NCBI RefSeq assembly: GCF_048403405.1 | Contig: NZ_CP183135.1 | Reading direction: 5' to 3' (one strand) | Origin: Escherichia coli | GTDB taxonomy: Bacteria; Pseudomonadota; Gammaproteobacteria; Enterobacterales; Enterobacteriaceae | DNA length: 64,000 nt | Shown here: piece by piece, positions 1-1,398 of the stretch | How the letters are laid out: every line of letters begins with the position of its first letter | How positions within the stretch are numbered: the first letter of the stretch is position 1 | Notes under the pieces: model-generated | Told to the model about the DNA's origin: nothing | Database searches by the model: none | The model's input: the letters and a program-made list of their open reading frames with translations, nothing else | Program-made: the position numbers and the translations under genes

Positions 1-25
1 CTGCAGAAATCAATGATATTTTCAA
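1..25 (-). CDS. 5' end (first 8 codons) of a dfrA17/dfrA7-type trimethoprim-resistance cassette gene; continues beyond window start
   Basis: Reverse complement of 1-25 is TTGAAAATATCATTGATTTCTGCAG, encoding (M)KISLISA, the N-terminus shared by DfrA17/DfrA7; lies directly after the attI1 crossover. Only 8 codons visible. Confidence 0.4.
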
Positions 26-46
26 TTTAACTCCCTTAATGGCTAA

Positions 47-111
47 CTTTGTTTTAGGGCGACTGCCCTGCTGCGTAACATCGTTGCTGCTCCATAACAT
101 CAAACATCGAC
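47..111 (-). other. attI1: attI1 recombination site of a class 1 integron (crossover G/TT at 47/46)
   Basis: Minus strand reads ...TTATGGAGCAGCAACGATGTTACGCAGCAGGGCAGTCGCCCTAAAACAAAG|TTAGCC, the canonical attI1 end upstream of intI1. Extent approximate. Confidence 0.6.
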
Positions 112-182
112 CCACGGCGTAACGCGCTTGCTGCTTGGATGCCCGAGGCATAGACTGTACAAAAAAACAGTCATAACAAGCC

Positions 183-1196
183 ATGAAAACCGCCACTGCG
201 CCGTTACCACCGCTGCGTTCGGTCAAGGTTCTGGACCAGTTGCGTGAGCGCATACGCTACTTGCATTACAGTTTACGAACCGAACAGGCTTATGTCCACT
301 GGGTTCGTGCCTTCATCCGTTTCCACGGTGTGCGTCACCCGGCAACCTTGGGCAGCAGCGAAGTCGAGGCATTTCTGTCCTGGCTGGCGAACGAGCGCAA
401 GGTTTCGGTCTCCACGCATCGTCAGGCATTGGCGGCCTTGCTGTTCTTCTACGGCAAGGTGCTGTGCACGGATCTGCCCTGGCTTCAGGAGATCGGAAGA
501 CCTCGGCCGTCGCGGCGCTTGCCGGTGGTGCTGACCCCGGATGAAGTGGTTCGCATCCTCGGTTTTCTGGAAGGCGAGCATCGTTTGTTCGCCCAGCTTC
601 TGTATGGAACGGGCATGCGGATCAGTGAGGGTTTGCAACTGCGGGTCAAGGATCTGGATTTCGATCACGGCACGATCATCGTGCGGGAGGGCAAGGGCTC
701 CAAGGATCGGGCCTTGATGTTACCCGAGAGCTTGGCACCCAGCCTGCGCGAGCAGCTGTCGCGTGCACGGGCATGGTGGCTGAAGGACCAGGCCGAGGGC
801 CGCAGCGGCGTTGCGCTTCCCGACGCCCTTGAGCGGAAGTATCCGCGCGCCGGGCATTCCTGGCCGTGGTTCTGGGTTTTTGCGCAGCACACGCATTCGA
901 CCGATCCACGGAGCGGTGTCGTGCGTCGCCATCACATGTATGACCAGACCTTTCAGCGCGCCTTCAAACGTGCCGTAGAACAAGCAGGCATCACGAAGCC
1001 CGCCACACCGCACACCCTCCGCCACTCGTTCGCGACGGCCTTGCTCCGCAGCGGTTACGACATTCGAACCGTGCAGGATCTGCTCGGCCATTCCGACGTC
1101 TCTACGACGATGATTTACACGCATGTGCTGAAAGTTGGCGGTGCCGGAGTGCGCTCACCGCTTGATGCGCTGCCGCCCCTCACTAGTGAGAGGTAG
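183..1196 (+). CDS. intI1: class 1 integron integrase IntI1, 337 aa (R32/H39 variant)
   Basis: ORF-track protein [40 protein letters not shown]...[30 protein letters not shown] recognised as IntI1; followed by IRi. Confidence 0.97.
270..298 (-). promoter_or_regulatory. Pc: integron cassette promoter Pc, PcH1-type (-35 TGGACA, 17-bp spacer, -10 TAAACT)
   Basis: Minus strand reads TGGACA (293-298) then 17 nt then TAAACT (270-275), inside the 5' end of intI1 and directed toward attI1. Confidence 0.65.
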
Positions 1197-1373
1197 GGCA
1201 GCGCAAGTCAATCCTGGCGGATTCACTACCCCTGCGCGAAGGCCATCGGTGCCGCATCGAACGGCCGGTTGCGGAAAGTCCTCCCTGCGTCCGCTGATGG
1301 CCGGCAGCAGCCCGTCGTTGCCTGATGGATCCAACCCCTCCGCTGCTATAGTGCAGTCGGCTTCTGACGTTCA

Positions 1374-1398
1374 GTGCAGCCGTCTTCTGAAAACGACA
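1374..1398. repeat. 25-bp inverted repeat IRi bounding the class 1 integron
   Basis: GTGCAGCCGTCTTCTGAAAACGACA, reverse complement of TGTCGTTTTCAGAAGACGGCTGCAC. Confidence 0.85.

Follow-up and report, generated by a model that had tools for sequence, protein, structure and literature searches.

A class 1 integron with promoter PcH1 and first cassette dfrA17 at the In2 position of Tn21 in an Escherichia coli IncF multiresistance plasmid

Among the cassette promoters of class 1 integrons, PcH1 consists of the hexamers TGGACA and TAAACT separated by 17 bp, and the active form of the second promoter, P2, consists of TTGTTA and TACAGT, likewise 17 bp apart (Jove et al. 2010, Table 1, PMC2791841). 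PcH1 is of intermediate strength in vivo; it exceeds PcW by a factor of about 4.5 and is itself exceeded by PcS by about the same factor. Both PcW and PcH1 are paired with the R32_H39 variant of the integrase IntI1 (Table 3 of the same study), which has the highest excision activity of the IntI1 variants. The intI1 promoter overlaps a LexA site, which is broken by the same GGG insertion that gives rise to P2 (Jove et al. 2010, PMC2791841). In Tn21 of plasmid R100 (NR1), the class 1 integron is In2, whose entry into the transposon gave rise to tnpM as a remnant of urf2M (PMC5052281). Published surveys report PcH1 together with the dfrA17-aadA5 array, and PcH1 was found in each of 55 clinical E. 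coli isolates carrying this array (PMC9058876). The dfrA17-aadA5 PcH1 integron is common in IncF plasmids of E. coli, Shigella, and Salmonella.

We analyzed a 64,000-nucleotide stretch of E. coli DNA (contig NZ_CP183135.1; hereafter, the window). Its bases 1-1398 are, with a probability of roughly 97%, the 5′-conserved segment (5′-CS) of a clinical class 1 integron at the In2 position of Tn21, in an IncF multiresistance plasmid, in which PcH1 drives an array that begins with dfrA17. Each part was identified by sequence, and so were the variants of Pc and of the integrase, dfrA17 at the edge, and the setting in Tn21. IntI1, attI1, a Pc located within intI1 and facing attI1, and IRi were all found, as expected of a class 1 integron, and all parts needed for function were intact and in the canonical arrangement.

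The array enters the window at its left edge. Direct reading of the minus strand of bases 1-25 gave TTGAAAATATCATTGATTTCTGCAG, that is, the codons TTG, AAA, ATA, TCA, TTG, ATT, TCT, and GCA followed by G. This stretch is the beginning of the dfrA17 coding sequence, comprising a TTG start (25..23), the rest of codons 1-8, and the first base of codon 9, and it translates as (M/L)KISLISA. Upstream on the same strand is the 5′ untranslated leader of the cassette (46..26), which begins at T46, past the G|TT crossover. After the attI1 core, the leader reads ATTAAGGGAGTTAAA and is followed by the TTG reading frame, which is cut off by the window edge at base 1. A Shine-Dalgarno sequence, AAGGGAG (37..31), precedes the TTG by 5 nt, and the TTG itself lies 244 nt downstream of the −10 hexamer of Pc. 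The earlier note on this DNA had proposed that a dfrA17- or dfrA7-type gene starts at the window edge on the minus strand with KISLISA, and bases 1-25 bear this out directly.

Because the window contains only 25 coding and 21 leader bases of the cassette, the complete dfrA17 and the later cassettes rest on collinear public records. Bases 1-1900 were 100% identical in several complete plasmids, and in 1,194 of 5,426 complete E. coli genomes a single match covered 80% or more of these 1.9 kb. E. coli plasmid pCREC571-1 (NZ_CP183118.1), from a urine isolate from Taiwan, differed from the window by one mismatch in 63,801 compared bases and is therefore either the plasmid from which the window comes or its sibling. 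Plasmid p675SK2_B (NZ_CP027703.1), likewise of E. coli, was identical over window positions 1-26345, lacked a 1,326-bp insertion at 26346-27671, and differed over 27672-58921, the end of the compared part, only by seven homopolymer-length indels. Bases 1-25 were identical to dfrA17 of both plasmids. To the left of base 1, both records continue into a complete dfrA17 (157 codons; 474 bp with its stop), aadA5, and the 3′-conserved segment qacEdelta1-sul1. The leftward extension suggested in the earlier note was thus obtained by proxy, and a first cassette other than dfrA17 was not found upstream of base 1 in either of the two collinear records. Judging from these records, aadA5 almost certainly comes next, ahead of qacEdelta1-sul1. 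It could be supposed that dfrA17 is truncated or that the array changes just past the edge, for example through a cut by IS26, so that the edge would be a remnant and not part of a working cassette; the region is indeed rich in IS26, and only 25 coding bases of the gene lie within the window. However, the gene is complete and followed by aadA5 in both collinear plasmids, one of which has a single mismatch in 63.8 kb, and each sampled record with the exact 47 cassette-side bases is annotated with dfrA17. We therefore consider a broken cassette very improbable.

We compared the edge with other members of the dfrA7/17/25 group, since the peptide MKISLISA is common to DfrA17 and DfrA7, and integrons with dfrA7 or dfrA25 can likewise be aligned to the window edge. 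The dfrA7 integron of pWS3294A_97 (NZ_CP035821.1) has the same 5′-CS, the same core GTTAGCC, and the same peptide, and its cassette is 91% identical to dfrA17 at the nucleotide level and 92% at the amino acid level. By contrast, it departs from the window at 5 of the 47 edge bases, has PcW (TAAGCT) instead of PcH1, and carries a single-cassette array. Three of the five differences fall in the leader and two in the coding sequence, at nt 9 (ATA versus ATT in dfrA7) and at nt 25, which is window base 1. The latter opens codon 9, which is GTG (Val) in dfrA17 but ACG (Thr) in dfrA7, and the coding strand of the window has G, not A, there. At all five positions the window agrees with dfrA17, and the 5′ end of the cassette (leader and start of the open reading frame) matches dfrA17 records at 47 of 47 bases. 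In PLSDB, about 1,024 plasmids matched bases 1-47 at a minimum of 99% identity; when this ranking was sampled at even spacing, 53 of 53 exact matches were annotated with dfrA17, and 12 of 12 sampled plasmids with the dfrA17 edge were 100% identical over bases 1-300, including Pc. About 1,000 dfrA17 records thus matched at 100%, whereas dfrA7 records reached 91.3% over bases 2-47 and 98.3% over bases 2-300, and a dfrA25 record reached 95.7% over the first 300 bases. These results rule out dfrA7 and leave a first cassette from elsewhere in the group exceedingly improbable. The first cassette is identified at the nucleotide level as dfrA17, which settles the choice that the earlier note had left between dfrA17 and dfrA7.

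attI1 (111..41, minus strand) adjoins intI1 in divergent orientation and ends in a core of the GTTRRRY type, GTTAGCC (47..41), which spans the junction with the cassette. attI1 sites of this kind extend over roughly 65 bp. A short open reading frame encoding MLRSRAVALKQS with its stop codon (81..43), presumably the one called ORF-11, overlaps attI1. Given that the cassette has its own Shine-Dalgarno sequence, translation of dfrA17 would not depend on this short frame.

The cassette promoter was read on the minus strand at 298..270. Its −35 hexamer TGGACA (298..293), 17-bp spacer TAAGCCTGTTCGGTTCG, and −10 hexamer TAAACT (275..270) match PcH1 in the table of Jove et al. 2010 (Table 1, PMC2791841). 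It sits within intI1 codons 30-39 and is directed left, toward attI1 and dfrA17. A generic sigma-70 scan of bases 1-1900 yielded only two promoter-like sites, Pc among them, whereas shuffled sequences gave 0.6 ± 0.6. The triplet upstream of the −10 hexamer is TCG, and there is thus no TGN-10 motif. P2 was found only in its inactive form (179..154, minus strand), with TTGTTA at 179..174 and TACAGT at 159..154 separated by a 14-bp spacer and without the GGG insertion; together with the TCG triplet, this spacer corresponds to the plain PcH1 configuration. Main expression of the cassettes from P2 or from a TGN-extended Pc, by which the promoter would not be plain PcH1, has next to no probability and is excluded by these features: both P2 hexamers exist in the window, and In2 of Tn21, at the same site, uses PcW-P2, but an active P2 needs a 17-bp spacer (Jove et al. 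2010, Table 1, PMC2791841), and TCG, not TGN, precedes the −10 hexamer. On the basis of published experiments (PMC2791841), PcH1 would transcribe leftward from within intI1, across attI1, and into dfrA17 and the later cassettes. dfrA17, which encodes a trimethoprim-resistant dihydrofolate reductase, would be translated from its own ribosome-binding site, and intI1 would be read in the opposite, rightward direction.

intI1 (183..1196, plus strand), the single long genuine gene in bases 1-1398, is full length and encodes an integrase of 337 aa, annotated as WP_000845048.1 in identical records. The protein scored 799.5 bits against the NCBIfam integron-integrase equivalog NF011946 (cut-off, 435), aligning over 1-337 of 337, and 508.6 bits against TIGR02249. 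The catalytic residues R146, K171, H277, R280, H303, and Y312 were all present, at the tyrosine-recombinase positions known for IntI1. The protein has R at residue 32, encoded by CGA (276-278), and H at residue 39, encoded by CAC (297-299). The G within TGGACA accounts for H39, and the C that lies two bases before the −10 hexamer accounts for R32. L31, R32, V38, and H39 were all read in the translation, in agreement with Table 3 of Jove et al. 2010 (PMC2791841) for the R32_H39 variant. The residue pair cannot separate PcH1 from PcW, because the A/G change in the −10 hexamer is synonymous in Ser30 (AGT/AGC). The earlier note had named the promoter PcH1 from its hexamers and had linked it with R32/H39; the first reading holds, and the pairing is real, although PcW is paired in the same way. 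All three of its claims, including that on the window edge, were upheld, and it was right in all details.

The promoter region of intI1 occupies 128..170 on the plus strand. Its hexamers are TTGCTG (128-133) and TAGACT (151-156). A palindromic box of the LexA type, CTGTACAAAAAAACAG, is intact at 155-170. Without the GGG insertion, the LexA site is undisturbed, and the integrase should be expressed during the SOS response only. Such SOS control through the intact box would agree with published experiments (PMC2791841). Antisense open reading frames within intI1 (273-668, 720-1124, and others) were taken as spurious in GC-rich DNA.

The outer end of the 5′-CS (1197..1398) is identical to that of In2 of R100 and ends in the 25-bp IRi, which was found as an exact 25-bp match at 1374-1398 (minus strand 1398..1374, TGTCGTTTTCAGAAGACGGCTGCAC). 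The end coordinate given in the earlier note, 1398, thus marks where the integron really ends. On its outer side, IRi adjoins tnpM, the remnant of urf2M, after which come res, tnpR, and tnpA, and this order places the integron in Tn21. The Tn21 portion next to IRi (1399..1895, plus strand) comprises the tnpM remnant (1399-1749), res, and the first seven codons of tnpR, whose ATG is at 1875. The open reading frame at 1399-1749 is truncated at its N terminus, and its first 50 residues match the C-terminal end of EAL-domain phosphodiesterases. PGAP labels the tnpM remnant in identical records as a partial DUF3330 protein; the 66-aa DUF3330 piece (1549-1749) had no NCBIfam match, and the label is that of the PGAP annotation of those records. 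A 204-aa open reading frame (1135-1749, plus strand) across the integron boundary was rejected as spurious; intI1, IRi, and the tnpM remnant account fully for this region.

tnpR is interrupted after codon 7 by an 820-bp IS26 (1896..2715, minus strand), recognized by its terminal repeats and its IS6-family transposase (275.6 bits). The element is flanked by an 8-bp target duplication, GCATTGGG, at 1888-1895 and 2716-2723. The intact duplication points to a simple insertion of IS26 and not to a recombination junction. The rest of tnpR (to 3263) and tnpA (3266-6232, 988 aa) follow at 2703..6232 on the plus strand, and TnpA scored 1328.7 bits against the Tn3-family transposase model NF033527. PGAP still calls a 186-aa "recombinase family protein" in tnpR, with a start within the end of IS26. 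Within res, shortly before the tnpR start at 1875, a strong sigma-70-like site (1819-1847, plus strand; TTGACA, 17 bp, TAGAGT; 10 of 12 positions matched) is presumably the tnpR promoter. As a consequence of the IS26 insertion, this putative promoter now drives just a seven-codon stub.

We then compared the window with R100 (NC_002134.1). Window positions 44-1895 aligned with R100 14334-16188 at 99.73% identity with three differences, and window positions 2715-8527 (tnpR-tnpA-catA1-IS1) aligned at 99.98% identity, indicating that the integron occupies the historical In2 site of Tn21 within an R100-type resistance determinant. The insertion point in Tn21, the IRi/tnpM junction, the IntI1 protein, and attI1 up to the crossover are the same in both. 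Identity to In2 ends at window position 44, in the GTTA common to both junctions and beside the crossover G47|T46. By contrast, In2 carries at window position 160, within the LexA box, an additional GGG (Pc strand) that is missing from the window, and it has G for A at position 272 in the −10 hexamer of Pc, making its promoter PcW (TAAGCT), whereas that of the window is PcH1. The third difference is a SNP at 1438, in tnpM. In2 therefore combines an active P2 with a disrupted LexA box and the cassette aadA1, whereas the window has an intact LexA box and dfrA17; unlike in R100, tnpR is broken by IS26.

Leaving aside the SNP in tnpM, what separates the window from In2 lies close together near the cassettes, in the part of the 5′-CS with positions 160 and 272. 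Owing to this clustering, we see an even chance, judged from sequence comparison, that homologous recombination within the 5′-CS and 3′-CS brought in the dfrA17-aadA5 array along with its own PcH1/no-P2 region, as opposed to cassette-by-cassette exchange.

The dfrA17-aadA5 PcH1 integrons of pCREC571-1 and p675SK2_B showed no difference from the window within 1-1398; the Pc variant, the integrase WP_000845048.1, the attI1/dfrA17 junction, the Tn21 site, and the IS26 in tnpR are the same in those two plasmids. Beyond sul1 they diverge. p675SK2_B continues with chrA-padR-IS6100-mphR-mrx-mph(A), whereas pCREC571-1 continues with ISCR1-dsbD′-trpF-ble-blaNDM-5, an IS30-family remnant, IS26, and mph(A). 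The ISCR1-blaNDM unit has been described before (PMC12240926). In NZ_CP183118.1, the stretch of the complex integron from sul1 to IS26 occupies 2859-8842, about 3-9 kb left of window base 1, and blaNDM-5 itself lies about 7 kb past the window edge in the same complex integron. The near-perfect match to this record suggests that the window is probably part of an NDM-5 carbapenemase plasmid.

The seven indels relative to p675SK2_B, of one base each, fall at window positions 31985, 36850, 40158, 43956, 43972, 55093, and 58711. We rejected these differences as a biological signal, since all seven concern homopolymer length and are most simply sequencing noise. The indel at 40158 lies in a gene for a TonB-dependent receptor (38671-40640), which the annotation of pCREC571-1 gives as frameshifted, as it does iucD (61022-62355); both frameshifts are probably long-read sequencing artefacts and not signs of real pseudogenes.

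The 1,326-bp insertion at 26346-27671, which pCREC571-1 shares but p675SK2_B, though identical otherwise, lacks, is IS4321 of the IS110 family, with a 334-aa transposase (341 bits). It sits in an apparent 38-bp terminal repeat of a truncated Tn3-family transposon, split as GGGGTCCGCTTGGAAAACGGAA and AATTATCCCACGCTAAG. Such repeats are a known target of IS4321. More generally, positions 6877-64000 carry resistance modules mixed with iron-uptake and virulence loci. The resistance modules are catA1 (6877-7536), tetR/tet(B) (9823-11733), and IS26-aac(6′)-Ib-cr-blaOXA-1-catB3′-IS26 (30156-33854); the iron-uptake and virulence loci are an FTR1-type permease cluster (about 17290-25315), sitABCD (49830-53279), and aerobactin iucABCD-iutA (56611 to the window end). 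A RepFIB replication gene is found at 45871-46848. The RepFIB-like protein encoded at 45871-46848 had no match in NCBIfam.

The arrangement of 5′-CS, PcH1, and dfrA17 is ordinary and already known from about a thousand sequenced plasmids, with the textbook features of a clinical class 1 integron, and it has no bearing on an open biological question. The window is part of a well-known lineage of IncF multiresistance plasmids, and the value of its description is practical only; blaNDM-5 in the best-matching plasmid is clinically relevant and already on record. If the array was indeed imported by homologous recombination, the same event would also have repaired the LexA box and returned intI1 to SOS control, which had been lost in In2, the ancestor in this Tn21 backbone. 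With the promoter strength and integrase activity taken from the literature, trimethoprim resistance through dfrA17 is to be expected from the moderately weak PcH1, beside an excision-active, SOS-regulated integrase.
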